This document shows positions 19,728 to 51,001 of a stretch of 51,001 bases of DNA, in pieces. The position numbers were made by a program, and so were the translations under genes. Source of the DNA: an uncultured Saprospiraceae bacterium (GTDB lineage: Bacteria > Bacteroidota > Bacteroidia > Chitinophagales > Saprospiraceae); assembly GCA_964402245.1 (NCBI GenBank), contig CAYOBX010000001.1:1-51001 (forward strand), given 5' to 3'. The notes below the pieces were generated by a model, which saw nothing but the letters and a program-made list of their open reading frames with translations, ran no database searches and was not told where the DNA came from. Position 1 is the stretch's first letter. Every line of letters starts with the position of its first letter.

Positions 19728-19829
19728 TTTATTATCTTTAATATTGAACCCACCTAAATAATGCAGTTAGGTTAAAAATTAACATAATTCAAATTTCGTG
19801 CAATAATGTTGTTTATATTTTTTGAATTG

Positions 19830-22800: not shown

Positions 22801-25800
22801 GGGCGATTAAGTGGAGAAACTTCATATTGCGTAACAGTAAAAGCAGTTCCATTAGGTACGGTTCTAAACGAACCGTTACTTAAAAGGCTTTCAAAAGGCT
22901 CATAAGCCATTGCTACCCTACTTTGATTATCATAACTGACGGCGGTAATAATATCTTTGGGGTCAGCCGCATCGGGTGAATGTTTGATTTGATTGGTCTG
23001 CAACAGCCGTCCCAATCCTCCTAAATACTGTCTAGTTTCGATGGCTTGCAGCGCACTTAGATTCAACCCATCAGGTTGAAAAGTGACTTTTTGATTAATG
23101 AAATTATGCGTATTTGTCCCATCTTGGTATTGGTAGCTGATGTCTGTAAGTACGTTGCCATCCCGCTCATTAATCTGGATTAACCGCATCAAGGGATCAA
23201 AGTCAAAATCTGTGTCCTGTGCATCTATATCAATGGTTTCACTTGCGATCCTTGTTCCCGTAAAATAGTTTGCCACCCATTGAAAATTCTCAAAAGTTCG
23301 AGTTTTAATCTGCTTATTGATGGCATCGTAGGTATAAAATTCTGTTTCCCATCCTTTACTTGTCGAATTGGCAGGTCTGCCTACTGCCATATTATAAGCC
23401 CCGTGATGTTCTAGCGTATCCCATCCACTATTTGGACCTGTTACTTGTAGATTGCCACCAGCATCCCAAGTCATTTCATAATCTTCAAAAAGATAAGGGT
23501 AAATCGGGTCTAAACCACTACCGCCTCGCAGTCCAAAATTATCAAAGAAATCACAGTTGAGCCGTTGCCCCTTTGTTTGCAAGGCTGTTCCATTTTCTTC
23601 TACTTTATGAATCGTTTCAATAGGGGTCGCAATTTGATTACGAGCTACCATTGAATCATAAACCGTCTGGGTAAAATCAAAGGGGTAACGATGTTCGGTG
23701 ATAAATTTTAAATCATCCGAATTGGTCATGCTTACACCAACAGGTGCTAAGTGACGGTTAAGATTGTCATATTCATACACCATCTGTGTACTCACCCCAT
23801 CCCGAAAACTGGTCACGACTGATTTTTGAAACTGATTAGGAGAGATATTTTGATAGGTGCGATGAAAATACCAAGTTTGCTGTCCACAAACAATGGGAGG
23901 AGCTGTCTTAATAATAAGATTCGGTGAATTAGTGCTAATAATCGTTCTAGGCGTTACTGCCGACTGATTCACCAGCGTCGCTTGATTAGCTTCTACCTTA
24001 AATGCACTTGTTCTATCCGACTTTCCTTTATACACATTGAGTTGTGCAGGTGGTCGAGGAAACTGATTAACAAAATTAAAAATGGGGTCAAAGCTACCAA
24101 AGAAGGTATAGGTATTATAGCCATTATCCGACTCACTATTGCCTAGTATCTCTCTAACGTTTTGGTATCCTAACGAAATTCCGTCATAGCCCCCTAGCGG
24201 AACGATGCTATTATCGGTAAAATAAGCGGCTTCAACCGCCCCCTCCACCAATCCACCTGCAGTAATAGATTGTCCATCAACAAAATAAGCATATCGGGGA
24301 ATTTGGTATAAAATTCCACTTGATTCATTCGGTAGATTCTCGTTTTTATACTCAAAAGTTTTGATAACATCAGGATTGAGATTCTGTCCATCCTTAGCCG
24401 TTATTTTTCGGATGCGGAGTCCACCAGCAGGACGAGTGGCAAAAAACTCATCTTGAATGGTAAAGAGGGCAAACCGAGCCTGTCCATTATTGCTACTGAC
24501 CTCAAAGATATAAGGTACATTGAGGCTTAACGCTCCCAAGTTTGTTAAAGGAACGTCATCTCTTATTTCAAATTGTTGGCTGCTATTGAGATTAAAACTA
24601 TAAAAGCCTCTTTGAATGGGGTTATTCGGGTCGGTGACTTCTAAGGCTCGAATATTTAAAGTGGGTAAGGGCAAATTACAATCAATGCTACCGTCCCCTG
24701 CATCATCTACTATTTTGGTCAAAACAGCGGTGAAATACGCTCGGTCTATTTCTCCTTGGGAAGTAAAAGTGTAAGGCGTGATAGTGGTTTCATCATGCGC
24801 TCCACAGCATTGTAATTCTAACGGATTGGGACAGCTTCTAATTTCTGGTACTAAGGTAGTTTCCTCTCCTTGAATTTGTCCGTAATAATCATTGAGTTCG
24901 TATTCAAATTCAACGCTTCCCCCCAATGGGTTATTGATTTTTGTTAAAATGCCATATTGGGTATGGGTTAAACTAGGATTCCGATTTGCTTGTCCTTCGA
25001 TTAAGATTCTCCCGTTGGGAAGGGTCAATCTGGTATCTTCGGGTAGGTTAATGGGTAAATTATTATTGGTGAATTGCCCATTGAAGAATCCCCATTCATC
25101 GGTTGCCTTATCTAGCCTTTGAGGCAAATAAGGTGACCCATCAGTATTCAGAGGTCCATCATATTCAAAACTGTAAGGAGGGATTTCAATATAAGTACCT
25201 GTGCAGGAAACTTCTTGTACTGATAAGAGCCGAAGTCGCTTCGATTCGGAGCGCTGATTGACGGGAAAAGCGGGGTCTTTGAAATAATCGTAGGCAAAGC
25301 GAAAGCGTTTACAGAATTTGGTGCCGCTACTAATCGAAAGGGAATCCAAACGGTAGGAAGTGCCATTGACATCTTCTCTAGCTGTGTTGGCAGCAAAAGT
25401 AATTGTTTCGGTAGGGCTTGTAATGGTGGCGAGGCGCAATCCTCTGGTTACTTGGGTGGTCGTAAAAAAATGATTGGCATCATAAGAAGAGCCCACACAG
25501 CTTTGACTTGCAGACCACCCACTATACCCCACACCGCCACAACCTGTATAATTAATCTGGCAAGAGGAAGGAGTTACGTAGCTGTAATTTTCTGTTTGAT
25601 AATCTAAGGTGATATTATCGATGCCATCATAAGACTGAATGCGCAGCAAGTACCAAGAAGAAATCCGCTCCATGTCTCCTTGATTAATGGTTCTTTCTTG
25701 GGCAACTCGATTATCGGTCGGGTCTTGGCCAAAAAAGTATTTGGTGCCATCTTTGTCGATAATGGTAAAACCTAAAAATGGTCCATTATTTTCGGTGGAT

Positions 25801-26348
25801 TCAACTAGCTTTAAATCCTGCTTAGGCACAAACTCAACCATACCAGGTCCATCTCCTGTAAAATAAAAGCGTCCAGAGGTGCCATTGGGAAGGGAAAAAC
25901 TAAAGAGATCTGGTTCTTCATCACGAGAATTGATAATCGCTTCAAGTTGATTGTCTTCAAGAAACTGTCCATTGCGATAATAGCCTAGGGCATCATCATC
26001 GGCACGATCGAGGATGGTACGAGTAATCATTCCCCCTGCACTTAGATCCCAATTCCCCGTCCACGAACTCAAAGTGGCCAGTTTGATACCTGCCGAGTGA
26101 TAGCTCAACGAAATGGGTAAACTGACTTTGCCGTCTGATACCGTATATAACGGAATAGTATTGTTTGAAATGCCTGTAAAATAAGAAACGGGTACATCCA
26201 CATATTTGCCAAAAGAAGTAGCAGAGGGCGTAGGCATGACTACATCTCCTACATGGCTATTGGTTGGTTGTGACCATCCATTTTGTGTATGAATTAGGAG
26301 GCTTAATCCTAAAAAAAGGAAACGATTTACAAGAGAGAGCTGATTCAT
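19830..26348 (-). CDS. RHS/YD-repeat polymorphic toxin with a C-terminal HNH nuclease domain (2172 aa)
   Basis: Signal peptide, many YD-type repeats, and RHS core ending ...RYYNP-like TYNPTTARWLQVDPE...NDPNGD. The 222-aa tail carries CADC..YDH..N..CRDCN (HNH with two CxxC pairs). Confidence 0.9.
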   Translation of the reverse strand: MNQLSLVNRFLFLGLSLLIHTQNGWSQPTNSHVGDVVMPTPSATSFGKYVDVPVSYFTGISNNTIPLYTVSDGKVSLPISLSYHSAGIKLATLSSWTGNWDLSAGGMITRTILDRADDDALGYYRNGQFLEDNQLEAIINSRDEEPDLFSFSLPNGTSGRFYFTGDGPGMVEFVPKQDLKLVESTENNGPFLGFTIIDKDGTKYFFGQDPTDNRVAQERTINQGDMERISSWYLLRIQSYDGIDNITLDYQTENYSYVTPSSCQINYTGCGGVGYSGWSASQSCVGSSYDANHFFTTTQVTRGLRLATITSPTETITFAANTAREDVNGTSYRLDSLSISSGTKFCKRFRFAYDYFKDPAFPVNQRSESKRLRLLSVQEVSCTGTYIEIPPYSFEYDGPLNTDGSPYLPQRLDKATDEWGFFNGQFTNNNLPINLPEDTRLTLPNGRILIEGQANRNPSLTHTQYGILTKINNPLGGSVEFEYELNDYYGQIQGEETTLVPEIRSCPNPLELQCCGAHDETTITPYTFTSQGEIDRAYFTAVLTKIVDDAGDGSIDCNLPLPTLNIRALEVTDPNNPIQRGFYSFNLNSSQQFEIRDDVPLTNLGALSLNVPYIFEVSSNNGQARFALFTIQDEFFATRPAGGLRIRKITAKDGQNLNPDVIKTFEYKNENLPNESSGILYQIPRYAYFVDGQSITAGGLVEGAVEAAYFTDNSIVPLGGYDGISLGYQNVREILGNSESDNGYNTYTFFGSFDPIFNFVNQFPRPPAQLNVYKGKSDRTSAFKVEANQATLVNQSAVTPRTIISTNSPNLIIKTAPPIVCGQQTWYFHRTYQNISPNQFQKSVVTSFRDGVSTQMVYEYDNLNRHLAPVGVSMTNSDDLKFITEHRYPFDFTQTVYDSMVARNQIATPIETIHKVEENGTALQTKGQRLNCDFFDNFGLRGGSGLDPIYPYLFEDYEMTWDAGGNLQVTGPNSGWDTLEHHGAYNMAVGRPANSTSKGWETEFYTYDAINKQIKTRTFENFQWVANYFTGTRIASETIDIDAQDTDFDFDPLMRLIQINERDGNVLTDISYQYQDGTNTHNFINQKVTFQPDGLNLSALQAIETRQYLGGLGRLLQTNQIKHSPDAADPKDIITAVSYDNQSRVAMAYEPFESLLSNGSFRTVPNGTAFTVTQYEVSPLNRPVAVTPPDWYTTHTLYGSNQTAITVPGTSITYAIGELNTITTIEPDGSSTQTGDRSTILSDKRGKPILLRQQNQSGSSQTSTYTIYDKKERETIIIPPAASATDANLIFTTLYSGEDNKLEIKIPDKEKTTLVYEPRNIPIAFQDGNLRTDGKWMITQYDVYGRVTKTGLNTTPTTVNEVWTENYYDGLRPNNSLTGFTNPSIDIGRLTALNNYVLNGNQVSNTFIERFYFYDDFGRMITDSGNNHRNGLLQRFMNYDYLDNVVKTRRRYHISAFNSQRDTITQSYDHQGRPIDTHHNLQNGTSQHLCRKAYDHKDLLLKEFLSGTTNGFLQECNYTYLENRFLKGINETMAADDLFSLQIAYDQGITPQYEGNIASLTWEFKDGQSQIYDYQYDFLNRLTAANYNLHNNAYGTTYSYDLRGNINSLTRRGLYGNSSNLQTQQIDNLSYSYVTGTNRLKAIADTAPCPTSKLVDNPLDNTQLHAVEEMLEANNVVNANAAITYQAGDSIVLKPGFHAKSGAIFTAKIANCPQGGFETDGFVQRSSADYDYDNNGNQTIDPNKGIQISYNYHNLPYQVSFANGSKIDWLYDGEGKKLQKQTTGKQQNMLNQLVDTILLTQDYFDDIEYSNDTLEALYFDVGRLFFGNSSPYYEYAIKDHLKNQRVLFSDKNTDGTIDNTEISETSSYYPYGLRQRGSGLRVNPTYDYLFNGFERNADFGFGLDFAKYRTYNPTTARWLQVDPEAGLFTGWTPYKFGMNNPVLFNDPNGDCEVCKEALINSAVFVAGVANSISSNLTGNFPGTRGNPNDFGKYAQAAAIGQQTGDVLSLVAGTAGTILGTVAATGSSLTTPVTGPVGAGAAVALGTGAAASAGVATTAFNNLTGNNAIVNMKTGSKGGPKEGKSFTKKQKSEAKQENIKNNDGEFRCADCDVQLVDAKKSQKGVKPPGNEAQYDHIYPKKHGGNTTSDNRQILCRDCNRKKSDKLPEDYYNN

Positions 26349-28450: not shown

Positions 28451-28490
28451 GCTTCATTACCTGTTTTACAGCTAATGAAGCCTTTTTATT
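28451..28490 (+). terminator. Orphan plus-strand intrinsic terminator in an ORF-free region
   Basis: GCTTCATTAcCTGTtttACAGcTAATGAAGC followed by CTTTTTATTT. Confidence 0.6.
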
Positions 28491-28669
28491 TCTAGGAGTT
28501 AGGTTGATAAAAGAGAAGTTTGTATTTAATAAAAAACAATGTATTTTTGAATAGCCTTTAATGATTCTCTCTATGTAACGGGGTCGTTTCTCTCTACTTG
28601 GTAAATAGACTCGACCTCGATTTTATTGATTTACTAAAAGCACCATTCAATATAAATATTGGTTAGCTT

Positions 28670-33398: not shown

Positions 33399-35222
33399 AT
33401 GGATATTCAACCATTAAAAGTCGATGACTTTATTCAAGAGGTGAAGCCTATTTTAGATACTCTAAGAAAAAATGTAGCACAAAACAATACAGAAATTCGA
33501 GTCTCAGATATATTCGATAAAGCAGGTAATCAGTATATTAATCTGGTTCAAGAAGGAGGTGGGCTATTAGGAATTGCTTTAGTTGGATTCACCTATGTTT
33601 TGGAAGAAATGGGCATTCGTTTCTTGAGTTTGGGAGGTACTTCTGCAGGTGCAATTAATACTATTTTTTTAGCTGATGTCGATAAACCTGCAAATAAAAA
33701 AAGTCTTGCAATTTTAAAGAAAATTGCAGGTTTTGATTTTATGCAATTTGTAGATGGAGGCAGACGTGCTAAATGGCTGGTTAATGCAATGGCTAAGGAA
33801 AAAACAGCACTAACCTACTTGTTAGCGGTAATGAATGCACCTAGATTGTTTCAGAAAAAAGGGATTAACCCAGGGACTTTTTTTGAAGACTGGTTAGAAA
33901 AAGAATTAAAGCACAAAAGGTTAGATGCCTTAGACAAGAACATAAAAGATATTCCTGACTTAATCTTAAAAGATGACTACGGGAAGGAAAGAAAGTTAGA
34001 CCCTAAAAAGTTGGCTATTAAATTAGCTATTGTAGCTGCGGATATTACTACGCAAACAAAGGTAGAGTTTCCCAAAATGGCTGAGTTGTATTTAAGAAAT
34101 CCTAAAGTCGAAAGCCCTGCCGCTTTTGTTAGAGCCTCGATGTCAATTCCTGTATTTTTTGAGCCCAAACAATTTAATCTTTCCTCTTTTACTGGTGGGA
34201 AAAAAGATTTTTATCAAGAGAGATGGAAAGCTTTAGCTGATTTTAGGTCTTCTCAACTTCCCGAAAGTGTACAGATGGTAGATGGTGGCGTGATGTCTAA
34301 CTTTCCTATTGATTTATTTCATACAGAAGACACCATTCCTTTGCGACCAACTATTGGTGTCAAATTGGGGATAGATCGGTATAATTTTAAAAAACATGGT
34401 GGCTTATTTAAATTTGCGGGGAATATTTTTGACGGAGTACGGAATTTGAGAGACCATGAGTTTTTAAAAACGAATCAGGAATATCAAGAATTAGTTGAAC
34501 ATATCAATATAGATGATATTAATTGGTTGGATTTTAACCTATCCAACGAAAATCAACTAAGATTATTTAGAGAAGGGGCGGTTGCTGCACAAAATTTTCT
34601 TAACCGTTTTAATTGGACGAATTATAAGAAGCGTTTAAAATCAGAGCTAATTCAGCGCATCAAACCACTTACTTGGGAGTTGTCTAATATTGATGATTTA
34701 GAAGGGGTATTAGAGGTTTTCAAAATAGAAAGAGGCACCCCACTTTTTGAACGGATACAGGAAATAAAAAAACGACCTGAGCCTTATAAAGTGCTTTGGG
34801 TAGATAACTCATTTACCTATACCTTGCCTATGGCTATTTTAGATAAGCTCAATATTTCTTGTATTACTGCTAATAGCTCCGAAGAAGCCTTTGATATTAT
34901 TGATGAACACGATGATATTGACTTAATTATCTCTGATTTAACCAGAGACAATAGCAATATAGGAGGTATTACACTTTGCCAGCGGCTGGCTTTAGATCCT
35001 AAGGCTAAAAATATCTCCGTATTAATTTACGTCCATAGTCAATCAAGTTTAAAAGAAAGATATTTTAAACATTTAAAGGAAACTAATGATTCTATAATCA
35101 GGTCTATCCGTTCTCCTGAAGAAGTAGAATTACCCAAAAATATAATTAATAGTATTGGTAGAAATACTGTTAGTCATAAAGAGTTTATCATGGAGGTTGT
35201 AGAAAATATTGATAAAAGCTAA
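33399..35222 (+). CDS. Patatin-like phospholipase fused to a C-terminal receiver (REC)-like domain (607 aa)
   Basis: GGGLLG oxyanion motif, GTSAG nucleophile elbow (Ser82, 33642..33644), and VDGG catalytic Asp (34281..34283). The C-terminus KVLWVDN...DLIISDL...VLIYVHS fits a CheY-like beta-alpha pattern. Confidence 0.8.
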   Translation: MDIQPLKVDDFIQEVKPILDTLRKNVAQNNTEIRVSDIFDKAGNQYINLVQEGGGLLGIALVGFTYVLEEMGIRFLSLGGTSAGAINTIFLADVDKPANKKSLAILKKIAGFDFMQFVDGGRRAKWLVNAMAKEKTALTYLLAVMNAPRLFQKKGINPGTFFEDWLEKELKHKRLDALDKNIKDIPDLILKDDYGKERKLDPKKLAIKLAIVAADITTQTKVEFPKMAELYLRNPKVESPAAFVRASMSIPVFFEPKQFNLSSFTGGKKDFYQERWKALADFRSSQLPESVQMVDGGVMSNFPIDLFHTEDTIPLRPTIGVKLGIDRYNFKKHGGLFKFAGNIFDGVRNLRDHEFLKTNQEYQELVEHINIDDINWLDFNLSNENQLRLFREGAVAAQNFLNRFNWTNYKKRLKSELIQRIKPLTWELSNIDDLEGVLEVFKIERGTPLFERIQEIKKRPEPYKVLWVDNSFTYTLPMAILDKLNISCITANSSEEAFDIIDEHDDIDLIISDLTRDNSNIGGITLCQRLALDPKAKNISVLIYVHSQSSLKERYFKHLKETNDSIIRSIRSPEEVELPKNIINSIGRNTVSHKEFIMEVVENIDKS

Positions 35223-35286: not shown

Positions 35287-35534
35287 AATTAATGGGTATT
35301 ATCGAACAAAAGGCAAATTTGTCCCACAGGCTTAATTTTCATCGAAAACGGCTATAAAAATAGACTATGGTGATAACGAACGTTAAAATTATAGGATAAG
35401 ACCATACAAAACGCTCATGTATCGCTATGAAATTATTATGGTTTTAGTCCAAAATTTGCCTTAAAACCATAGCATTGTCGGCTATATTTAGTTATGGGAC
35501 ATTTCCGACTTTTGTGCGATATTACCCAATTAAT
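35287..35534. repeat. About 250-bp imperfect palindromic element (MITE-like, or a structured RNA locus)
   Basis: 39-nt terminal arms (35287..35325 / 35496..35534) are complementary at 29/39 positions without gaps. There is an extra internal inverted copy of AAGGCAAATTT at 35447..35468, plus nested CTATGGT/ACCATAG pairs. Confidence 0.55.
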
Positions 35535-35756
35535 CTAGCATTTATATATTTACATGATGTTAAATTTTATTCCAAGTCATTTATCATATAGAGTGGAACG
35601 ATATGAGTCTATGATATAAAGATTAAGTAATTCTTTCTAAGGTTGTTATTTTTGTAAAGAGAGTAAGATTGCTTATGTGAGGTTCTTTCTAATGGTAGAT
35701 GTTATGATTTTTAATTAACTAAGAATTTTTTATTCCTAATAGAAATGGGGGAATGA

Positions 35757-36314
35757 TTAAAACATAGTTACATAATAGGTAATAGCTACAGTTAGAATAA
35801 TAGTAAAAAAAATAAATAGAATAAGATTAATTATTTTAATATTAATAGCTTCTTTTTCCTGTAATCTAGCTAATTCTGCTTGTTCGCACTTATCTAAAAG
35901 CAGGGGAAGAATTGCTTCTAGCCTTGATTGAGAATTTTCTGGAGATTCAGCTTTTACAGCTACCAATATATCTATTATTAAATCGTTGAATAGCTCTTCT
36001 ATTTGTTGTAAATCATTATCAGATGCCATTCCAATCCAGCCAAAGAAGTAGTTTGCTTTTCTTTTAGAGGAAGTTTCCAAACTATAATTGACAGCCTCAA
36101 GTGGTAGAACAGGTCTAGACCTAACGACATAGCCTAGTTTTTTCTCTTTTGGAGAAACTTTGAATTGGTTTATAGCAATTCTCTCAGAGAATGAACCATT
36201 TAGATAATATTTAGCTAAACCTGTAGGTGTTCTATCACTTGCAATCAAAATGGCTGAATAGCCATCTTGAAGACCTGCAATAATAAAAGGTATTTTTGAA
36301 TCTAATTTTATCAT
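35757..36314 (-). CDS. Tail-anchored protein (185 aa), possible Roadblock/LC7 (MglB-like) domain
   Basis: The N-terminal GLQDGYSAILIASDRTPTGLA loosely matches the Roadblock G..A.L+...dG pattern. C-terminal TM helix INLILFIFFTIILTVAITYYV. Last gene of the GTPase operon. Confidence 0.55.
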   Translation of the reverse strand: MIKLDSKIPFIIAGLQDGYSAILIASDRTPTGLAKYYLNGSFSERIAINQFKVSPKEKKLGYVVRSRPVLPLEAVNYSLETSSKRKANYFFGWIGMASDNDLQQIEELFNDLIIDILVAVKAESPENSQSRLEAILPLLLDKCEQAELARLQEKEAINIKIINLILFIFFTIILTVAITYYVTMF

Positions 36315-36438
36315 TCTAGTTGGTCTTTTTAGTTTGAATTATGCATAATGATAACTGATTTGTAATTTTTATTATTTTGAGGTGACGAATATTTATATGC
36401 TATATGAAGGCAATTGCAATTTTTTTGCCATATTTAAT

Positions 36439-37431
36439 TTATTTTAATATGTAGTCATAATTATCTTTCATATGGCTTACAAAATTAGCAATATCGTTCT
36501 GTACAAAGTTAGAATGGTAAAATATTTTGATTTCTCTACCTTTGGGAAACCATTTTGCATTTTTCATTTTTATTTTTATTCCTTCAGTAAAGTCTCTTAA
36601 TATTTTTTCATTTACGTCGTCTTTTTCCCATAAGTCTTTTTTATTAATAAAGATGCAAATGCCCTTAATTATGTGGTCAATTTCTGTGTATTTATCATCC
36701 AAATAACCTATAATCTCATCAGCAAAATATTCATGTTCTTTGAGTCTAGCTTCGTTAATAGCTGATGAATTGTTAGATTCATTGTGGTCTAAAAATAGAC
36801 AAATAAAACTTTTGTTAATTGCTACTTTGAATTGTTGGAAAAAAACTTGTCCTTTTCCATCAAATAAATTTACTCTTTTTCCTATTTCAATTATCCAGGT
36901 ATGCTTTGATAGTTCAGTTGTAGAAATAGGGGCTTTCAAGTTTAATAGTTTTGTTATCAAAGTACTTTTTCCAACCTTACTTTTTCCTATGAAAGCTATC
37001 TCAGGATAATCTTTTTGTTCTGATTCTATTTCTTTCTTGTCTTCCGTTTTTAGATTATTGTGAGACGGCTTCAATATGAGTACAAACAATCTTGCAATAG
37101 CTGCTAGAAAAGGAAAAGCTAGAATCCAAGCTTCATTGGAGTTGAGAGTTTCCTTTGTAAAGAGGAAAACACAAAGACTTGTGGTAGTAATAAGAACAAT
37201 TACACATATTACCAAAATGATAATTTTGTAAACCTTTTTATTATCATATCTATTTAAAAAAAGACTAGCTATTATTCCTATGGTAATCAATGATAGTCCC
37301 CATTGATAATAACTATTGCTATCTTGTTTTAGTATCCACCCAATAGCTGTAACAATGAAAGTAAGTATTCCTAGTACATCAGCTATGAGTCCTATTTTCT
37401 CGAATAGAATTTCTTTTTTGTCTCTTGTCAT
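36439..37431 (-). CDS. Membrane-anchored small GTPase (330 aa; 4 N-terminal TM helices plus a TRAFAC-type G domain)
   Basis: G1 GKSKVGKS (36964..36987), G3 DGKG (36850..36861), G4 NKKD (36634..36645). Hydrophobic helices at about residues 14-34, 45-59, 68-92 and 101-120. Confidence 0.75.
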   Translation of the reverse strand: MTRDKKEILFEKIGLIADVLGILTFIVTAIGWILKQDSNSYYQWGLSLITIGIIASLFLNRYDNKKVYKIIILVICVIVLITTTSLCVFLFTKETLNSNEAWILAFPFLAAIARLFVLILKPSHNNLKTEDKKEIESEQKDYPEIAFIGKSKVGKSTLITKLLNLKAPISTTELSKHTWIIEIGKRVNLFDGKGQVFFQQFKVAINKSFICLFLDHNESNNSSAINEARLKEHEYFADEIIGYLDDKYTEIDHIIKGICIFINKKDLWEKDDVNEKILRDFTEGIKIKMKNAKWFPKGREIKIFYHSNFVQNDIANFVSHMKDNYDYILK

Positions 37432-37468
37432 TTGTATAAAATTTTGAGTTAATATTAGTTTTTTATTT

Positions 37469-38377
37469 TTAGTCTTCTAGAGACAACTTAGCGAATGTCA
37501 GTAGCTCAGAAATTGCCGAGTTTCGGTCTATTCTAGATAACGAAGAAATTAACCCTACATTTAATATTTGTGCTTCTTCATTTGCAATATGAGTAGGTAG
37601 CATAATTTTTTTGAACATCAAAGCTTTAGGTTGGTTTGAAGCCTCTTCATTGCACATATTATTATTTATAGATGAAGATGAAGATAGTATAGATAATAAA
37701 TCTAGATTTTTGTTACAATAATTTTCTATAGTTTTTTCTTTAGTGTTTACTCTAATTTCAATTGTGACATCACTATTTGATGTCTTCTTTGCTGTAATGA
37801 TAAAACCTTCTGAGAGTTTAATAATTTCTTTTTCTACTTTATCAGTTGCTTGAATAATTATTCTTGACTTTTTTGGAAGATTGAATTTGATAGATTTGTC
37901 TCTAAAAACTATAGTATCTGTCTTTCTATTTGTTAGTTCGTCTTTACTTGGTATGTAGATTTTATCTCCCCTTCTAATGTCTACTAAATCATTACTTATA
38001 GTCCTGTCTAGAACTAAATTTTTATAACTATTATCTTTTTCTCTCTTTTTTGTTGTGAATGAAATTATAGATTGATACATATATGAATGACCATATTCTT
38101 TTTTGGAGATACTTGATAAAGTTTCTCCTCTATTCTCTATAATGTAATCTCGGCCTTTAACTATATAAGAGGAATCTTCAAATATCTTAGATTCCAAAAT
38201 TTCTTTTTCTCGTAGGCTTGATATTTTAGAAGGAGAAATTGAAATAACATTGTCTCTTTCTGGGGTTAATTCTGAGTTCTTTTTTTTATTAAAAAGGTAT
38301 ACAAGCCATGCCGCACAAGATAGAATGACAATAGAGAGTATTGTTGTAAGTATCTTTGAAGATAAAATAGCTTTCAT
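37469..38377 (-). CDS. Single-pass membrane protein with a LysM-like domain (302 aa)
   Basis: TM helix ILTTILSIVILSCAAWLVYLF. The Y.VKG.....GETLSSISKKEYG......I..GDKIYIP pattern resembles LysM with an insertion. Confidence 0.6.
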   Translation of the reverse strand: MKAILSSKILTTILSIVILSCAAWLVYLFNKKKNSELTPERDNVISISPSKISSLREKEILESKIFEDSSYIVKGRDYIIENRGETLSSISKKEYGHSYMYQSIISFTTKKREKDNSYKNLVLDRTISNDLVDIRRGDKIYIPSKDELTNRKTDTIVFRDKSIKFNLPKKSRIIIQATDKVEKEIIKLSEGFIITAKKTSNSDVTIEIRVNTKEKTIENYCNKNLDLLSILSSSSSINNNMCNEEASNQPKALMFKKIMLPTHIANEEAQILNVGLISSLSRIDRNSAISELLTFAKLSLED

Positions 38378-38793
38378 AAGTATAATTTTAAGTTAAAGAC
38401 AAACATAATACATTTTTCTGCTAGTAAAAATTATATGTAAAGAATTTTTGTGGTGACATTTTTTATATTCTCACGTCACGCAGGTTTTCCCCATTTCATA
38501 CTGCTTTTATTTGCTCCTGTCCGCTTTTGATTACCAAAGTAGGACAGGATAGCCCTGCCCTACCCTTTCAGCCTTTATCTCCAAACTTGTCTATTTCACT
38601 AGATTGTCCTGCTTTCGAAACTAGGATGACTTGAAAATTACTGTCTTAAAGGGGGGCAACAGGGATAACTAAAGGACTGAAAACTAGCCTTTTTATTGCT
38701 GCGGGTTTGGTGTCTTAAAAAGAACTGGTTTTGGGATATGAGTTTTGTTGTGGCTGCATGCTATTATATTGATTCTTCGGTTTATGTCGGTTT

Positions 38794-38845
38794 GCTAAAA
38801 CGTTAATATGGGCTACGTACACATATTAACGTTTTAGCCATTTTT
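38794..38845. terminator. 17-bp perfect hairpin with a T-run on the plus strand, abutting the stop of the 429-aa gene
   Basis: GCTAAAACGTTAATATG (38794..38810) / CATATTAACGTTTTAGC (38822..38838), then CATTTTT. Confidence 0.65.
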
Positions 38846-40134
38846 CATTGAAATACAGAAGCGGGTTTCATTGGTTTAATTATGACTTGACTATTCGTTC
38901 TATCATCAAGTATTTTGAAATACTTATTTTCCGTTTTTGAATTAAAAATTTCCGTGTAACCGTCTAATGTTTCAATTTCAATCGTAAACCCAATTGTATT
39001 TTTTGTGAGTGGAATTCTCACATCCTTTATCCAAGTTATTTCCCCAGTCTTAAAATTTGGTACTTTTTTCTCTACTGTTGGCATAGTAAAAGTTTTATAT
39101 GATACCCAACCGTCGATGTTTTTTCTTGCCAAGTTAGACCATGCCGTTTTTGCCAGCAATTTCAATGTAAACCCTGCATCTGAAACATTAACAAATTCCC
39201 AAGGACTATTTTCTTCTCTTCTTGTTACATGAAATACAGTTGATGATTGGATTAACTTATGTCCTGTTGGAACAATCGTCGGATAATTACATGTTTCATC
39301 GCTCCTTCTTCCACTTCTACATTTATAATGATGAGGAGGCTTAGGAGTATGATGCGAATGTTCTTTTCTATTTTTAGATTTCTCAGTAATTCCTATCCTA
39401 TAAGTTCCCATTACTTTTGGTAATGAGAACAAAGGGATTTTAAATTTTCTTTCTTCGTAGTTAGGAAATACTAATAGTTTTGTTGTTTTGTGAAATACTA
39501 CTAAATCTACCGTTTCAGTTTTTATTTTTTTCTTTGGATTACTAAATTTCTCCAACGGTATATTGAATTGAAGGGTGCTTGACCCAGATTGAATAGGTTT
39601 TATTTTTTCACCATTTACAATTAGGAATGGTTCATATTCATCCCCATATATATGAAGTCTACTTCCGTATATTGGCAGGCTCACGTTATCTTCATTTGAT
39701 AATTTTAAGAAATGAACTTTATCTGGTTTCCTAACTCTTGGAAACTTTTCAAAAAAAGGAATTCGAGAAATTGATTCATCCAAATTATCTGTTACGACCT
39801 GTATTTCTTTTACCGTTTTATACAGTCCATTATTGAGGTTATTTATTAGTTTGTCTAAATCAGTAAATACTCTTTGTTGAGTTATATCTAGTTTATCAAA
39901 AGTTTCATTCATTGATTTTGAATATGCTGCTTTTAAATTTTCTATTTGAACTTGGACTTGTTGAGAACCAACCATTATTGTTGTTCTTGCTTCTTCACCT
40001 GCCTTTTCAATTAAATTTTTTCCAGCTTGCTCTAATTTAGAAATTGCTACACCAATGGACAAACCCCCAAATTGACTGTAGGTAATATTATTAATGGTAA
40101 AAAAGATGATGATTAGAATGATGTTTCTTTTCAT
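38845..40134 (-). CDS. Secreted protein (429 aa): signal peptide, helical N-terminal region, beta-rich C-terminal region with a His-rich patch
   Basis: MKRNIILIIIFFTINNITYSQ signal. Heptad-like region at residues about 30-115. HSHHTPKPPHHYKC patch. No family recognised. Confidence 0.65.
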   Translation of the reverse strand: MKRNIILIIIFFTINNITYSQFGGLSIGVAISKLEQAGKNLIEKAGEEARTTIMVGSQQVQVQIENLKAAYSKSMNETFDKLDITQQRVFTDLDKLINNLNNGLYKTVKEIQVVTDNLDESISRIPFFEKFPRVRKPDKVHFLKLSNEDNVSLPIYGSRLHIYGDEYEPFLIVNGEKIKPIQSGSSTLQFNIPLEKFSNPKKKIKTETVDLVVFHKTTKLLVFPNYEERKFKIPLFSLPKVMGTYRIGITEKSKNRKEHSHHTPKPPHHYKCRSGRRSDETCNYPTIVPTGHKLIQSSTVFHVTRREENSPWEFVNVSDAGFTLKLLAKTAWSNLARKNIDGWVSYKTFTMPTVEKKVPNFKTGEITWIKDVRIPLTKNTIGFTIEIETLDGYTEIFNSKTENKYFKILDDRTNSQVIIKPMKPASVFQ

Positions 40135-40495
40135 TTTTGATGATTTTTTATTTAGCTACAATTTTTAACTATACGCTATGTGGTATAGAGCTAGGCTAGC
40201 CACTAAGGTACAAAATCAAGATTGAAAAAGGAAAATGTTGCTATAAAAATCCGTTAAGTTAGACTGTGAGTCTTCATCTCATCTAATTTCCGCCTGTCTT
40301 AAAAAGTAGAGAAAAAAAGATAGGTCACCCAGGAATAGCAACCTACTTGATTCGCAAGATTGAGGACTGGTAAGTAGCACGAATATGAACATTAATAGAA
40401 TTAGAGAGAAGGCTAATAACAAGGTGAGTTGTGCTATAATTGAGTAGATAGTTAGTTAAAAGAATGTGTGACTATAATAATAAGGTTCTTGGACG

Positions 40496-40510
40496 GTGAA
40501 AAGAAAAAGA
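40496..40510 (+). repeat. GTGAAAAGAAAAAGA 15-mer, copy 1
   Basis: Exact 15-mer. Four copies in the replicon: 40496 and 40666, and inverted at 41592 and 17221. Confidence 0.75.
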
Positions 40511-40665
40511 CAGTATAGATTTTAATTCTGCTGGGGAAATGCCTATTTTGCAACTACAAAATTCTACATCTAAAATATCAATTAGAATGTGGTAGCTAAT
40601 GAAATCGAGGGAGAAGGTTAAAGCTATTTCATTATTTAGAAAATGTAGTAAAATTTTTTGTGCGG

Positions 40666-40680
40666 GTGAAAAGAAAAAGA
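40666..40680 (+). repeat. GTGAAAAGAAAAAGA 15-mer, copy 2 (47 nt upstream of the KilA-N start)
   Basis: Exact repeat 170 bp downstream of copy 1. Confidence 0.75.
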
Positions 40681-40726
40681 TTGGCAGAACCATTTCACTT
40701 AAACCTATATAGAGAAAATCACACCT

Positions 40727-41578
40727 ATGGCAAAAAAGAAAACGATTAATGTTCAAGGTAATGAAATAAGCCTTATCACTCAAGGAGATGAAGAATATAT
40801 CAGCCTTACGGATATGGCTAAAGGCTTTGAAGGGGAAGCAGGAGAGTATATTAGAAATTGGTTGCGGAATAACTCAACTGTTCGTTTCTTAGGTGTTTGG
40901 GAGAAAGTACATAACCCTAATTTTAATTTGGTGGAATTCCACCAAATTAAAGCTGAACTGGTAGATAACACTTTTCTTATGTCTGTTAAGAAATGGATAG
41001 CACGGACTAGTGCTATTGGTATGCAAGCACGAGCGGGTAGATATGGAGGTACTTATGCTCATAATGAGATAGCTTTGCAATTTGCAACATGGTTAAGCCC
41101 TGAATTTCATGTTTATCTTGTAAAAGAATTCAAAAGATTAAAACAGGATGAGGCAATACGACTTGGTTTACAATTTGACCTAAGACGAGAATTGACCAAG
41201 ACCAATTATGCATTACAGACGGATGCGATTAAGGCAATGCTTGTTCCTGATAAGGTGAAAGGTACGAAAGATGCCAGCCCATTTTATAGCAATGAAGCGG
41301 ATTTACTTAATGTAGTTGTTTTTGGCGATACAGCAAAGGGATGGAAAACTAAGAACCCAACCTTAAAAGGCAATATGCGTGACCATGCTACGATTGAACA
41401 ACTAATGCTTCTTCTTAATATGGAGGTACTAAATGCGACGATGATACATTGGGAATGGACACAGGAAATGCGGTTGGAAGTGTTACATAAAGAATCTAAA
41501 CGGCAGATGCCAACGATATTAAGGAGTGCTGCAATGAAGAGAATTAAGTCTAATGGAAAGAAGAAATTAAAATCGTGA
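40727..41578 (+). CDS. KilA-N domain DNA-binding protein (283 aa)
   Basis: The N-terminus INVQGNEISLITQGDEEYISLTDMAKGF... is typical of Bacteroidota KilA-N proteins. Confidence 0.75.
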   Translation: MAKKKTINVQGNEISLITQGDEEYISLTDMAKGFEGEAGEYIRNWLRNNSTVRFLGVWEKVHNPNFNLVEFHQIKAELVDNTFLMSVKKWIARTSAIGMQARAGRYGGTYAHNEIALQFATWLSPEFHVYLVKEFKRLKQDEAIRLGLQFDLRRELTKTNYALQTDAIKAMLVPDKVKGTKDASPFYSNEADLLNVVVFGDTAKGWKTKNPTLKGNMRDHATIEQLMLLLNMEVLNATMIHWEWTQEMRLEVLHKESKRQMPTILRSAAMKRIKSNGKKKLKS

Positions 41579-42770: not shown

Positions 42771-42790
42771 TTACTCAAAAGGTGATAATA
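42771..42790 (+). repeat. Outlying iteron downstream of rep
   Basis: TTACTCAAAAGGTGATAATA. Confidence 0.7.
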
Positions 42791-42807
42791 ACAATCTAAT
42801 GATGAAC

Positions 42808-44217
42808 TTAACGATGCTTTTCTAATTTCTTAATTTCAGTATCTAGCTGCTTTTGTTTTTGATAGAGTTCCCTAACCTCTGCAAATAACTCTGGATAATT
42901 GGCTTCTAATTGGATATTAATTTGAGAACTAACTATCGGACTTTGATGATAATTTTCATGCGGAGACAGATTTTTCTTTAATGTTCTAAAGCTACTACCC
43001 TGTTCTTTTTTTTCGATTACTTGATAAGCTTCCATAAAAGCAGCTTCATTATTGACCAACTTAATTAAAATCGGTTCTCTCAATTTTCGATATTGTTGAT
43101 TGATAATCTCTCTTTGTTTTTCAAGCTTGACTATCTGTAGATGCCTATCTTTTCGCTGTTTTGCTATTTCTCGTTTCTTTTGCTCTTGGAACACCTTTGG
43201 TGTTTTCCAATCTTCTCGTAATGCTTTGATTAAGAAACCCGCAGGGTTACTTCCTGCTGTTTTTGATTGGTCTAGCAAAGTAATTTTCTCTAAATAATAT
43301 ATTTCTATTGTTTTACATCGAGTTATCGCCTCTTTGCGACTGGATTCATTTTGAATCAAATCAAAACCTTGCTTTTGAAGATTATCTATGTTCTCAATAC
43401 TAATCCCTATTTTAGTTAATTTTTGAGTGATTGTATCTGATAGATTGGGCTTTTCTTTAATTTCAATCGAATCTGTTAGAAAATCTAATACCCCTTGTTT
43501 TGACTCTTCGCTTTTGGGTTCATTTGGATAAATGTAGAAAATCAATCCAATGACTTTCTTACCTTCTTTGATTTCTTCAAAATCAAATCGTATATCTGTG
43601 TGTTTTATTAATTCTGATTGTGCTTTTAATATTGCCTTTTTTTTAACATGACCATAAAGGTTGTAGTTGCAGCCAATGAGTCTTTTTAAATCTTCTAGCT
43701 CAAATGTACGTTTTCCTATCTTTTTATACTGAATGAGTATTTCATAAATCCTAATCGAATAAGAACTTTTCAGACTAGGAAGGTTCTTTAATTGATAAGT
43801 TGTATAGTTACGTTGTAATTCCAATAAATGCTCTTTTAATCGCCCAGATATTTCAAAGACAGTCACATCTTCTCGCCAGTCATTCTCCCAAGAGGAAATC
43901 AGAAAAGCATTTAGTATTGTTCCTTTATCTGTCAGTAATCGAATTGGTTCTTCATTCAATTGCTTGCAGATATTTTCTAAATCGGCATTGAATCGGTTGT
44001 AAGGCACATTTTTCTTATATCCTAAATACTGTCTAATATCTGAGTTTTTAACTCGTGTTAAGCGAAAGTCTTTATCATCAGGGCTAATTTTTGCCACAAT
44101 CAATCGCCCGACTTTCAAGGTCTTGGCGGGAAGCTTCGCCTTAGAATAATCAGCTTCAATCAACTTATTCGATTGAGTGACAAGGTGTTTTTCGGATGAT
44201 TTAGTATTTGTTGACAT
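42808..44217 (-). CDS. rep: Rep_3-family (RepB/RepE-like) plasmid replication initiator (469 aa)
   Basis: The VTQSNKLIEADY signature opens the winged-helix region. Adjacent to the iteron array. Confidence 0.85.
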   Translation of the reverse strand: MSTNTKSSEKHLVTQSNKLIEADYSKAKLPAKTLKVGRLIVAKISPDDKDFRLTRVKNSDIRQYLGYKKNVPYNRFNADLENICKQLNEEPIRLLTDKGTILNAFLISSWENDWREDVTVFEISGRLKEHLLELQRNYTTYQLKNLPSLKSSYSIRIYEILIQYKKIGKRTFELEDLKRLIGCNYNLYGHVKKKAILKAQSELIKHTDIRFDFEEIKEGKKVIGLIFYIYPNEPKSEESKQGVLDFLTDSIEIKEKPNLSDTITQKLTKIGISIENIDNLQKQGFDLIQNESSRKEAITRCKTIEIYYLEKITLLDQSKTAGSNPAGFLIKALREDWKTPKVFQEQKKREIAKQRKDRHLQIVKLEKQREIINQQYRKLREPILIKLVNNEAAFMEAYQVIEKKEQGSSFRTLKKNLSPHENYHQSPIVSSQINIQLEANYPELFAEVRELYQKQKQLDTEIKKLEKHR

Positions 44218-44254
44218 GATTACTTCTAGTGATTAAGAGTAGCAAAGATAACAA

Positions 44255-44283
44255 TTATCACCGAAAAGTCAATGAGGTGATAG
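44255..44283. promoter_or_regulatory. Inverted iteron-core pair at the rep promoter (likely autoregulatory operator)
   Basis: TTATCACC-N13-GGTGATAG, 38 nt upstream of the rep start codon. Confidence 0.55.
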
Positions 44284-44296
44284 TAAAAAATAATAA

Positions 44297-44610
44297 ATAC
44301 TCAAAAGGTGATAATAAGATGTTTTCACCCCACTCAAAAGGTGATTTTTATACTCAAAAGGTGATAGTAAAAGAATGTAGACTAATTTACTATATTCTTT
44401 GTAACTAATTGAATATCAATAATATAACAGAAAAATATTGAAATTTTTCTGTTTTTTGAAATACTCAAAAGGTGATAGTAAATACTCAAAAGGTGATAAT
44501 AGATTTCATAACTTATTGATAATCAACAGCTTTTGAAGCTGGAAAACAAGACTATTAAAACAAGAATTAAAACAAGAACAAAGGAAAATTATACTCAAAA
44601 GGTGATAATA
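44297..44610 (+). repeat. oriV iteron array: six direct copies of ATACTCAAAAGGTGATA(A/G)TA
   Basis: Copies start at 44297, 44330 (variant), 44350, 44461, 44482 and 44591. An AT-rich spacer with the hairpin ACAGAAAAAT/ATTTTTCTGT lies at about 44427..44453. Confidence 0.85.
44543..44577 (+). repeat. Three direct AAAACAAGA repeats inside the origin region
   Basis: Copies at 44543, 44557 and 44569. The last two form the tandem ATTAAAACAAGA. Confidence 0.5.
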
Positions 44611-44767
44611 GAAAATAAAATATAGATTTGCCGTGAAAAGAACAATAACAATATAATTACGGATACCGATTTTATAAGCCAATTTGGTGTTAGATTTAAA
44701 ATTTAAAGAAGCTTTCGTTTTTCTAATTAGAAAAATATGTAATCAAATAAAAATAACACAATTTGTA

Positions 44768-46556: not shown

Positions 46557-46580
46557 AGTCATTTATAAGAATAATGTAAA

Positions 46581-46660
46581 ATACAGCAAATTGCTGTATT
46601 TTGCTGTATTGATATTGAATATTTAAAGTTTTATACAGAATTTGCTGTATTATTTCTGTA
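46581..46660. promoter_or_regulatory. Centromere/operator-like cluster of TACAG/CTGTA sites upstream of parA
   Basis: ATACAGCAAATTGCTGTAT (46581..46599), ATACAGAATTTGCTGTAT (46633..46650), and extra CTGTA at 46604 and 46656. Confidence 0.65.
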
Positions 46661-46707: not shown

Positions 46708-47403
46708 TTGTCACAAAAAAAAGTTATGGTATTATCCGTTACAAATCTAAAGGGGGGAGTAGGAAAGACAACCCTAGCTACTAATATTGCTGTGTATCTC
46801 GTGCATCAAGGGTATGATGTTTGTATTGTTGATACAGATTTAGGACAACAATCTTCAATGGAATGGTCAGGTAATCGTGACGAATCGCTTAAACCTGTTC
46901 CTGTTTTTGGAATTGCCATTAAGCAGCTTAACAAGGAAGTTGAAGGACTAAAGAAACGTTTTGACATCGTTATAATTGACGGTACGCCCCAATTATCAGA
47001 ATTGGCAGATCGTACTATTCTTGCCAGCGATATATTGCTTATTCCGCTTACACCTAGCATTTATGATTTTAGAGGATTTGAGAACTTTCTTGAACGATTT
47101 GAACAAATTAAAGGGGTAAAAGAGGTTAGTGGCAGTCAAGTAGAAGCTTTTGTCGTCTTAAATCGGGTTGTTCCCAATAGTAATGTCAGTAAAGATATTG
47201 AAGAAGCGGTGTCTGAATATGATATTACACTTTTAGAAACTAAGCTCGTTAATCGAGTTGCTTATGTTGATACAGCAACTGACGGCAAAGGGGTAGTTGA
47301 ATATAAAGACCCTAAAGCAAAGAGGGAAATCGAAGCATTGGTGAAAGAAATAAATAATAAAACACAGAATAATGCTGTATTAATACAGAAAATTAAAGCA
47401 TAA
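46708..47403 (+). CDS. parA: ParA/Soj-family partition ATPase (231 aa; TTG start, alternative ATG at 46726)
   Basis: Deviant Walker A NLKGGVGKTTLA. GGAGG 5 nt upstream of the TTG. Confidence 0.85.
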   Translation: MSQKKVMVLSVTNLKGGVGKTTLATNIAVYLVHQGYDVCIVDTDLGQQSSMEWSGNRDESLKPVPVFGIAIKQLNKEVEGLKKRFDIVIIDGTPQLSELADRTILASDILLIPLTPSIYDFRGFENFLERFEQIKGVKEVSGSQVEAFVVLNRVVPNSNVSKDIEEAVSEYDITLLETKLVNRVAYVDTATDGKGVVEYKDPKAKREIEALVKEINNKTQNNAVLIQKIKA

Positions 47404-47437
47404 TGCTGTAATATTCATTAACTTTACAGCATTTTTA
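47403..47437 (+). terminator. Hairpin made of par-site motifs plus a T-run, between parA and the RHH gene
   Basis: ATGCTGTAA (47403..47411) / TTACAGCAT (47424..47432), then TTTTT. Confidence 0.5.
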
Positions 47438-48677: not shown

Positions 48678-48713
48678 TACAGAATATTTACAGCAAATTA
48701 CAGATAAATACAG
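48678..48713 (+). repeat. Four helically phased TACAG repeats
   Basis: TACAG at 48678, 48689, 48699 and 48709 (spacing 11, 10, 10 bp). Confidence 0.6.
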
Positions 48714-48730
48714 CAATATGCTTTAATTTG

Positions 48731-49009
48731 TTAGTTGAGAGGTTTTCGTGAAGTATGATAGATTCTCAAAACAAAAAGAGTGTTACCCGAAATTTTATAA
48801 ATAATTCGATAAGGTAAACTACCAATTTTTACCTCTTTTGTATCTTTTACTTTACCCATTTTTCCCATTTCGGGTAATTCAACCAAATTGATACAAGCCT
48901 GTTCAAGAGCATGATAGGTACTAGCTGATTTTTTAGGAAAATATTGAGTAAGATAAGTACTGATTTCTCTAAGGTCTTTTTCTGCTTTTGGTACTAATTT
49001 AATTTCCAA
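48731..49009 (-). CDS. RelE/ParE-family type II toxin (92 aa)
   Basis: AEKDLREI..YL......SA......L......L...P..G.........E.......PYRIIYKI.GNTLFVLRIYH pattern. 16-nt overlap with the upstream antitoxin. Confidence 0.8.
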   Translation of the reverse strand: MEIKLVPKAEKDLREISTYLTQYFPKKSASTYHALEQACINLVELPEMGKMGKVKDTKEVKIGSLPYRIIYKISGNTLFVLRIYHTSRKPLN

Positions 49010-50946: not shown

Positions 50947-51001
50947 AAAAAATAGTCCTTACCGTGTTGTCGCTTGCGCTCCTGCCCGAACCATAAGCAC
51001 G
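50947..51001. repeat. Wrap-around duplicate of 1..55
   Basis: 55/55 identical to the window start. Confidence 0.95.

Follow-up and report, generated by a model that had tools for sequence, protein, structure and literature searches.

The locus and its genes

The window analysed here is the whole 51,001-nt stretch of contig CAYOBX010000001.1, from an uncultured Saprospiraceae bacterium, and all coordinates refer to it. The element under study is a run of three minus-strand genes that an original prediction, made from the letters alone, had put forward as an undescribed operon of membrane-anchored proteins built around a small GTPase. The three open reading frames (ORFs) were confirmed, as were their intergenic gaps of 37 nt (302-aa to GTPase gene) and 124 nt (GTPase to 185-aa gene), and in order of reading they are:

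37469-38377, minus strand: gene for a protein of 302 amino acids (aa) (ORF)
36439-37431, minus strand: gene for a 330-aa GTPase (ORF; Pfam MMR_HSR1)
35757-36314, minus strand: gene for a 185-aa partner protein (ORF; partner-profile score)

Comparison of this locus with its relatives shows that the GTPase and the tail-anchored partner are conserved as a pair and that the triad is not; that this two-gene module is the functional unit we hold with confidence evenly divided for and against.

A predicted GTPase behind membrane helices

The 330-aa protein appears to be a genuine GTP-specific P-loop GTPase placed behind about four transmembrane (TM) helices. Its Kyte-Doolittle profile has hydrophobic segments at residues 13-31, ~44-60 (weaker), 70-88 and 102-120, an even number of helices that would keep the G domain cytoplasmic. 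The remainder of the protein carries G1 (GKSKVGKS, residues 149-156), T172, DGKG (191-194), NKKD (263-266) and HSN (306-308), and thus has G1, the switch-I Thr, G3 DxxG and G4 NKxD of the TRAFAC P-loop GTPases in canonical order; guanine specificity is predicted because NKxD is retained. Pfam MMR_HSR1 (PF01926) matches residues 144-258 with 27.3 bits against a gathering cut-off of 21.9, and with these segments, motifs and score the four N-terminal TM helices and complete TRAFAC G domain of the original prediction are borne out. The corresponding features are:

37072-37395, minus strand: N-terminal membrane region, residues 13-120 (Kyte-Doolittle)
36442-37011, minus strand: G domain, residues 141-330 (motifs checked by translation)
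36964-36987, minus strand: G1
36832-36870, minus strand: stretch containing DGKG
36781-36792, minus strand: LDHN
36628-36651, minus strand: stretch containing NKKD
36505-36519, minus strand: stretch containing HSN

A word-indexed homology search with all three proteins returned self-matches only, and the GTPase family was recovered by an exhaustive HMMER search of 1.84 billion representatives, 184 of which matched at E<1e-3 and 57 at E<1e-10. Among the best 149 relatives, 125 are built alike: they are 240-340 aa long (median 276), and their P-loop, at about residue 100, comes after hydrophobic segments. NKxD is kept in 123 of these 125. The TM segments most often number two per relative and number four in the window GTPase, which is a divergent member of the family (~25% identity). 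Within an alignment of 50 sequences the TRAFAC motifs are invariant or nearly so, the invariant positions being G149, G154, K155, T172, G194, Q200, D215, R229, N263, D266 and W268, and the family signatures are DGxG...QQF, DHN, NKxDLW and HSN; the window protein has QQF at residues 199-201, LDHN at 214-217 and NKKDLW at 263-268.

Databases recognise the family in general terms. MMR_HSR1 matches 42 of the 50 relatives at E<=0.01, Ras matches six, and DO-GTPase2 gives weak matches to 24. The SRPRB profile (PF09439, cut-off 25 bits) has no match in the window GTPase, and the best relative reaches 24.3 bits. The PADLOC matches are at the level of the P-loop only, namely LeoA (18.5 bits) and LeoBC (17.1 bits) for the window GTPase and mad8 for 11 of the 50 relatives (best E=3.4e-5), and PADLOC 2.0 found no significant component match for the window's three proteins. 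Pfam, NCBIfam and PADLOC hold no specific family for the GTPase, generic GTPase domains only (NCBIfam small_GTP), and relatives are named "GTPase domain-containing protein" or "hypothetical protein" in public records.

The GTPase gene is followed by a conserved partner gene

Related loci, numbered here with the prefix L, were retrieved, in part with a six-sequence GTPase alignment, and 14 of them were compared: the window and 13 other distinct loci, from a Brucella pseudogrignonensis genome, a Saprospiraceae metagenome-assembled genome (MAG), a Pinirhizobacter MAG, metagenome and Logan contigs and an Acinetobacter baumannii contig. L001 is identical to window positions 35382-40951 and was excluded as independent evidence. 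A homologue of the partner lies directly downstream of the GTPase gene and on the same strand in all 13 other loci, encoded by ORFs of 157-209 aa (324 aa in L015, a soluble variant). It starts between -17 and +10 nt from the GTPase stop codon in 12 of the 13, with stop and start often overlapping, and at +83 nt in L015, so that translational coupling of the two genes is the usual state. The pair is defined by a GTPase with N-terminal helices and QQF/DHN/NKxDLW/HSN, followed by a protein with F10/G14/S26/W93, and this is what the window encodes.

That the 185-aa protein belongs to the same family as these downstream proteins is supported by a profile built from 12 partner proteins of other loci, the window protein being left out, which gives the 185-aa ORF 57.7 bits (E=1.4e-17); among all 230 stop-to-stop ORFs of the window, the runner-up reaches 4.1 bits. 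BLASTP of the window partner gives 6e-8 over 152 residues with L013 and 3e-7 with L002 (Brucella). F10, G14, S26 and W93 are the motifs of this family, which is unnamed in public records. A tail anchor is present in the partners of the window, Brucella, Pinirhizobacter, Acinetobacter, L005, L013, L014, L018 and L019, and the partners of L003, L007, L010 and L011 are shorter and anchorless. The anchorless partners accompany a distinct GTPase subgroup, and in L015 (5001-10797) DUF4062 replaces the membrane helices in the soluble GTPase variant (P0054), which is paired with the 324-aa partner homologue. Because the soluble DUF4062-GTPase thus comes with a longer partner and the anchorless partners with a subgroup of their own, the GTPase and partner families co-vary in architecture.

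The pair is patchily spread over Alpha- and Gammaproteobacteria and Bacteroidota, and the A. baumannii partner cluster was seen on 414 contigs. A literature search covering accessions and membrane GTPase defence systems turned up nothing that describes this GTPase-partner pair, and a metagenome scan for relatives re-found one already known contig and no others. Of the proposed undescribed system, then, the unnamed GTPase-partner pair of the 13 other loci stands and the 302-aa gene, which is not conserved, falls away.

Two further observations concern L016 (CAKLQH020000009.1). It is labelled 'Acinetobacter phage MD-2021a' but carries prpC, acnA and fabB and so looks like an A. baumannii chromosomal contig, and its GTPase is annotated as 207 aa from an internal TTG, the members of its cluster reaching up to 279 aa.

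The partner is tail-anchored and has weak longin/Roadblock/PAS-like hints

The 185-aa protein has a single hydrophobic helix, at its C-terminus (residues 161-183). A single-sequence AlphaFold2 model was unusable, with a predicted local distance difference test (pLDDT) of 48.8, and a model made with an 11-sequence alignment reached a pLDDT of 75.6 and a predicted TM-score (pTM) of 0.64. The latter has strands at residues 10-16, 19-26 and 90-93 and helices at 31-38, 99-120 and 125-184, with the anchor forming part of the 125-184 helix; residues 43-81 are of low confidence (pLDDT below 50). The protein divides into:

36030-36314, minus strand: N-terminal alpha/beta domain, residues 1-95 (AlphaFold2 model, family motifs)
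35850-36020, minus strand: helices, residues 99-155 (AlphaFold2 model)
35766-35834, minus strand: C-terminal TM anchor, residues 161-183 (hydropathy 2.72; model pLDDT 88-96)

Roadblock domains have the topology alpha-beta-beta-alpha-beta-beta-beta, and longin domains have their strands first and two helices last; the order of elements in the partner model fits longin better than Roadblock. The original prediction had called this protein a tail-anchored Roadblock protein. The anchor is supported, and the Roadblock part is not supported by sequence: the 185-aa protein and 10 homologues had no Pfam match at E<=1, Robl_LC7 included, the window protein had none in NCBIfam or PADLOC, and the partner-family profile had none among PDB sequences. 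When the partner profile was compared with SRX, the Sec22b longin and DYNLRB1 by hhalign, the probabilities were 0.05-0.13% (DYNLRB1 0.13%); the DYNLRB1 query had been checked against PDB 1z09, and the Sec22b and SRX sequences were likewise verified. The Foldseek check that the original prediction had proposed, run with the partner model against PDB and BFVD, found nothing at E<=1e-3. Its non-significant PDB list is topped mostly by small alpha/beta sandwich domains (TM-score 0.3-0.4, E>=0.2), with weak matches to a Lokiarchaeal Roadblock-Longin protein (8yqg, 0.40), SRX (2fh5_A, 0.39) and the Sec22b longin (0.38), and further ones to AP sigma subunits, LOV/PAS and LasR ligand-binding domains. 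The resulting longin/Roadblock/PAS-like hints as to the fold are weak.

The 302-aa gene appears to lie outside the conserved module

The 302-aa protein has one N-terminal hydrophobic segment (residues 9-29), as claimed for a single-pass protein; this segment may serve as a signal anchor or as a lipoprotein-like signal (ILSC). Its charges, read by eye, do not clearly fix the orientation of the domain that follows. The LysM-like character also claimed for it is visible by eye (YIIENRGETLSSISKKEYGHSYMYQSII...ISNDLVDIRRGDKIYIP) and statistically sub-threshold: Pfam LysM (PF01476) matched neither the whole protein nor the excised region nor an insert-deleted construct, NCBIfam PRK11198 gave E=0.037 over residues 82-105 and so covers the first LysM half only, and the LysM domain of Kbp gave E=1.4, or 0.046 over the whole domain once a putative 17-residue insert (109-125) had been deleted. 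A search of 5.8 billion clusters found no homologue of this protein, and the only other contig with the gene is identical to the window. No homologue of it stands beside any of the 13 relatives, whose upstream genes are mutually unrelated and include those for pyruvate kinase, Abi_alpha, a DUF6843 protein, an OmpA-domain membrane protein and, by eye, the probable C-terminus of a valyl-tRNA synthetase. With no homologue found for the 302-aa protein, and unrelated genes in its place ahead of the pair in the relatives, the triad is not conserved; loss of three-gene co-conservation had been named beforehand as the point on which the three-gene idea would fail. We therefore regard the 302-aa gene, on comparative grounds, as a plasmid-specific addition outside the conserved module, which may feed in an envelope signal or simply be co-transcribed.

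The features of this upstream part are:

37946-38152, minus strand: LysM-like stretch of the 302-aa protein
38291-38353, minus strand: hydrophobic segment of the 302-aa protein
38400-38407, minus strand: promoter-like box TATGTTTG (pattern search; fits TAnnTTTG)
38794-38838, minus strand: perfect 17-bp hairpin with an 11-nt loop, 100% complementary (repeat search)
38845-40134, minus strand: 429-aa gene, 467 nt upstream of the 302-aa gene

TAnnTTTG is the -7 promoter consensus of Bacteroidota, and the TATGTTTG box starts 30 nt and ends 22 nt upstream of the ATG of the 302-aa gene. The pattern occurs only three times on the minus strand within 35700-40400, and the other two boxes (36511 and 36487) fall within the 3'-terminal part of the GTPase gene, so that the 185-aa gene may have a promoter of its own in this plasmid. 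A scan for sigma-70 promoters was at chance level (33 sites vs 29 expected). The 302-aa gene is probably co-transcribed with the GTPase gene, and a single transcription unit of all three genes is plausible; the 124-nt gap (36315-36438) holds a weak GGCAA...TTGCC hairpin.

The perfect 17-bp hairpin comes directly past the stop codon of the 429-aa gene and likely marks the upstream boundary of the transcription unit, and because it follows that gene immediately we treated the 429-aa gene as a separate unit. It had been considered as a fourth component and was rejected: its product has a signal-peptide-like N-terminus, the gene is 467 nt away with the hairpin behind it, and no homologue lies beside the relatives. 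The noncoding stretch between, 38378-38793, is relatively G+C-rich, has hairpins at 38515-38549 and 38607-38626 and gave no Rfam matches, and a 39-nt segment within it (38686-38724) shares 74% identity with 28479-28517.

Genomic surroundings of the pair

Several relatives have neighbours of the kind known from conflict systems, which gives some backing to the conflict context proposed for the window. L018 has a ThsA-like SIR2 protein, an AAA protein and a resolvase nearby, and L019 has MazG, M78-HTH (helix-turn-helix), PDC-S02 (1.9e-126), Mrr_cat and Eco57I. An Abi_alpha gene precedes the A. baumannii copy (L016), L014 adjoins HigB/HTH, and genes for a Ras/Roc GTPase and a TIR_2 protein stand ~2 kb from the L015 pair.

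Among these relatives too is L003, which adjoins an ORF that is transposase-like by eye only. In L010 (1611-6318) a 517-aa membrane protein with substrate-binding-like and OmpA domains precedes the pair with an overlapping start, and two coiled-coil proteins, one of them weakly PspA-like, come before it, an arrangement that resembles the Group 1 Rup neighbourhood discussed below.

In the window itself, bases 1-55 are repeated at 50947-51001, and because these 55-nt ends are identical the window is a closed circle, i.e. a complete circular Bacteroidota plasmid of ~50.9 kb (about 50,946 bp). Among the products of this conjugative plasmid are a Rep3 initiator, ParA, a TrwC relaxase, a type IV coupling protein (T4CP), a single-stranded DNA-binding protein (SSB) and a Toprim protein. 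The earlier description of the operon as plasmid cargo is thus confirmed by Rep3, ParA, the relaxase, the T4CP and the terminal overlap. An iteron, ACTCAAAAGGTGATA, is present in at least five copies at 42771-44625, on both sides of the Rep3 gene (42808-44217). The Rep protein is nearest to those of Haliscomenobacter and Aureispira and the plasmid also encodes a C-terminal sorting domain of the type IX secretion system (T9SS), and because of these two features the sequence points to a Bacteroidota (Saprospiria-like) host. An Rfam search of the window found no known RNAs.

Next to the operon lie a patatin gene and an element resembling a miniature inverted-repeat transposable element (MITE), both as first described:

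33399-35222: patatin-like phospholipase gene, 607 aa (Pfam)
35293-35528: MITE-like element, 236 bp, with 34-nt imperfect inverted repeats (TGGGTATTATCG.../...CGATATTACCCA, 79% complementary)

The MITE-like element separates the patatin gene from the 185-aa gene, which run towards each other, and contains a palindrome at 35437-35471. Neighbours of the GTPase locus in the window are the patatin, whose tail is receiver-like, together with KilA-N, an M78-HTH pair, and a DUF6443-HNH toxin with DUF4265.

Some of these neighbours deserve a few words. The C-terminal region of the patatin protein (about residues 460-545) has weak response-regulator receiver matches, and VpdC, an effector of Legionella, is a further weak match of the protein. 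The region 19281-26348 codes for a 2172-aa protein, which carries DUF6443 and, C-terminally, an HNH nuclease, and after it for a DUF4265 protein; the two genes look like a polymorphic toxin and its immunity gene. A palindromic motif, AATACAGCAAnTTGCTGTATTT, occurs four times near parA, Toprim and adjacent genes (1167-1208, 46564-46605, 47376-47417 and 48691-48732), and these copies may be partition or regulatory sites.

Possible roles of the pair

We consider it possible, at somewhat less than an even chance, that the GTPase and its partner form an accessory conflict module, serving anti-phage abortive infection or plasmid competition and having a membrane event as its output. The cytoplasmic G domain and the cytoplasmic alpha/beta domain of the partner would form a complex at the inner membrane, held there by the TM helices. 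The partner would bind the switch face of the G domain and act on or read its GTP/GDP state as a GTPase-activating protein (GAP), a guanine nucleotide exchange factor (GEF), an effector or an inhibitor, and the nucleotide state would control how the membrane helices are arranged or oligomerise. A bolder form of the same idea, namely a previously unrecognised and widespread two-gene conflict system in which an inner-membrane GTP switch sets off an abortive response and the partner is a divergent longin/Roadblock-type platform, making the pair a bacterial counterpart of SR-beta/SRX, seems to us unlikely.

A number of observations weigh against a conflict module. Searches of plasmids (PLSDB) by blastn and tblastn, with the locus and with the GTPases of the window and of Brucella as queries, had no matches, and a scan of IMG/VR viral contigs found no GTPase relatives; two matches from a phage collection lie on contigs with prpC, acnA and fabB, which look chromosomal. 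About half of the relatives adjoin housekeeping genes (pyruvate kinase, SMC, prpC/acnA, probable valyl-tRNA synthetase), and the link to defence islands, while suggestive, is guilt by association, anecdotal rather than a measured enrichment. There is no known effector domain in the pair. The physical interaction of GTPase and partner is inferred from gene order only, the 124-nt gap between their genes in the window is far larger than in the relatives and makes their coupling less certain here, and the Foldseek search did not establish the fold of the partner.

The same housekeeping neighbours favour a membrane or envelope GTPase switch with no part in conflict, acting in membrane stress, in protein targeting or insertion, or in localisation, and analogous to SR-beta/SRX. 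This role would also suit the OmpA peptidoglycan-binding membrane protein and coiled-coil proteins upstream of the pair in L010, the few relatives that come near the SRPRB cut-off (24.3 vs 25 bits) and the presence of SRX 2fh5_A, the Sec22b longin and the Lokiarchaeal Roadblock-Longin protein in the weak Foldseek list. However, a core process would not usually be spread so patchily or be carried by a plasmid and defence islands, the hhalign probabilities against SRX, Sec22b and DYNLRB1 are 0.05-0.13%, and the structural matches are all non-significant, so that we hold this alternative as a tentative one, on the doubtful side. The original prediction had instead seen a three-component envelope sensor, with the LysM protein reading the cell wall, the GTPase signalling and a GAP of the Roadblock type in the 185-aa protein. 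A single transcript is suggested by the 37-nt spacing and the TAnnTTTG box, YIIENRGETLSSISKKEYG...IRRGDKIYIP aligns with the entire Kbp LysM once the insert is removed (E=0.046), and one relative has an OmpA-domain protein upstream. Against this, the 302-aa protein is an orphan with no homologue beside the relatives, Pfam finds no LysM in it, sequence gives no Roadblock signal for the 185-aa protein, and the charge balance, by eye, does not clearly put the LysM-like domain outside the cytoplasm. Because the LysM match is sub-threshold the envelope-sensing model is left with no comparative support, and we judge it improbable.

Very improbable, in our view, is an addiction pair of the toxin-antitoxin kind, in which the free membrane GTPase would be toxic and its partner would neutralise it, stabilising the plasmid. 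That the two genes are small, tightly coupled and carried on a mobile element, and that L014 is close to HigBA, would agree with it, but the putative toxin gene comes first and is the larger of the two, the conservation of all G motifs suggests regulated enzymology over a simple toxin, and many copies are chromosomal and outside mobile elements. The notion that these are chance ORFs or decaying genes without function, which the self-matches of the word-indexed search for all three proteins might have encouraged, can practically be set aside: ORFs of 185-330 aa are improbable by chance in DNA of 29% G+C, and for the two core genes the notion is contradicted by significant homologues in which catalytic motifs and gene order are kept. 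The unit for study is the pair instead of the triad, and its presence in A. baumannii and B. pseudogrignonensis makes it testable in hosts that are tractable and of clinical relevance. Should it prove to serve defence or addiction, it would add a new GTP-driven membrane mechanism.

Comparison with known systems

The known systems with which we compared the pair are leads as to how it might work, and it matches none of them as a member. Closest in concept are the DO-GTPase/GAP1 systems, in which a TRAFAC GTPase is followed by a co-evolving partner and a conflict role near the membrane has been predicted (Kaur, Burroughs, Iyer, Aravind 2020, PMC7159879); ~13% of DO-GTPases carry N-terminal TM segments (PMC7159879). 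The resemblance does not extend to the sequences, as the DO-GTPase profiles (PF19993 and related; cut-off 27 bits) have no match in the window GTPase at E<=1 and the highest score among four relatives checked is 24.0. The Walker-B glutamate of the DO-GTPases is not conserved in the window family, whose alignment has Walker B as hhhhDGxG. The three-domain GAP1 partner has its place taken by partners of 157-209 aa with no GAP1-N/M/C match, and the paired paralogous GTPases and variable effector genes of the DO-GTPase systems were not found in the window-family loci.

Eleos (LeoA/LeoBC), the known defence system built on GTPases, consists of membrane-associated GTPases, which are anti-phage and whose defence is abolished by mutation of the phosphate-binding motif in either GTPase domain. 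Its dynamins, however, are large (559-601 profile positions) and have neither the TM G-domain architecture nor a small partner, and the window GTPase matches them in the P-loop only. Group 1 Rup neighbourhoods combine a small GTPase with an OmpA-domain membrane protein and a coiled-coil protein (Wuichet and Sogaard-Andersen 2014, PMC4316618), and relative L010 has a similar upstream set. The Rup GTPases are soluble members of the Ras superfamily with a signalling output gene, whereas neither an OmpA gene nor an output gene is present in the window. The original prediction had held that known GTPase systems are not linked to a peptidoglycan-binding partner. The Group 1 Rup neighbourhoods include a C-terminal OmpA-domain protein (PMC4316618), and because GTPase and OmpA protein are already paired there this claim to novelty was overstated.

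MglA/MglB and the conservons (CvnD/CvnB) also place a small GTPase beside a small alpha/beta regulator, and the first hairpin of the partner (IPFIIAG...AILIAS) resembles the beta1-beta2 hairpin of Roadblock. These systems are soluble and Roadblock-based, whereas both members of the window pair are membrane-anchored and the partner has no Robl_LC7 signal; the Roadblock order starts with alpha, whereas the partner model runs beta-beta-alpha...beta-alpha-alpha. In layout the pair is mirrored by SR-beta, an N-terminally anchored GTPase that is bound by the longin-like SRX of SR-alpha, and Sec22b has a longin domain, a helix and a C-terminal anchor as in the 185-aa protein. The likeness of the window pair to SR-beta/SRX, Sec22b and the Mon1-Ccz1 and Ragulator longin platforms rests on the weak Foldseek matches, with a negative profile comparison. 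A GTPase paired with a regulator is a recurring switch design, nearly all characterised bacterial examples of which are soluble. What is new here is a pair found across phyla in which both halves are membrane-anchored and for which Pfam, NCBIfam and PADLOC have no specific name. If the partner truly is longin- or Roadblock-like, the pair would bear on the origin of the eukaryotic GTPase platforms with which it is compared here.

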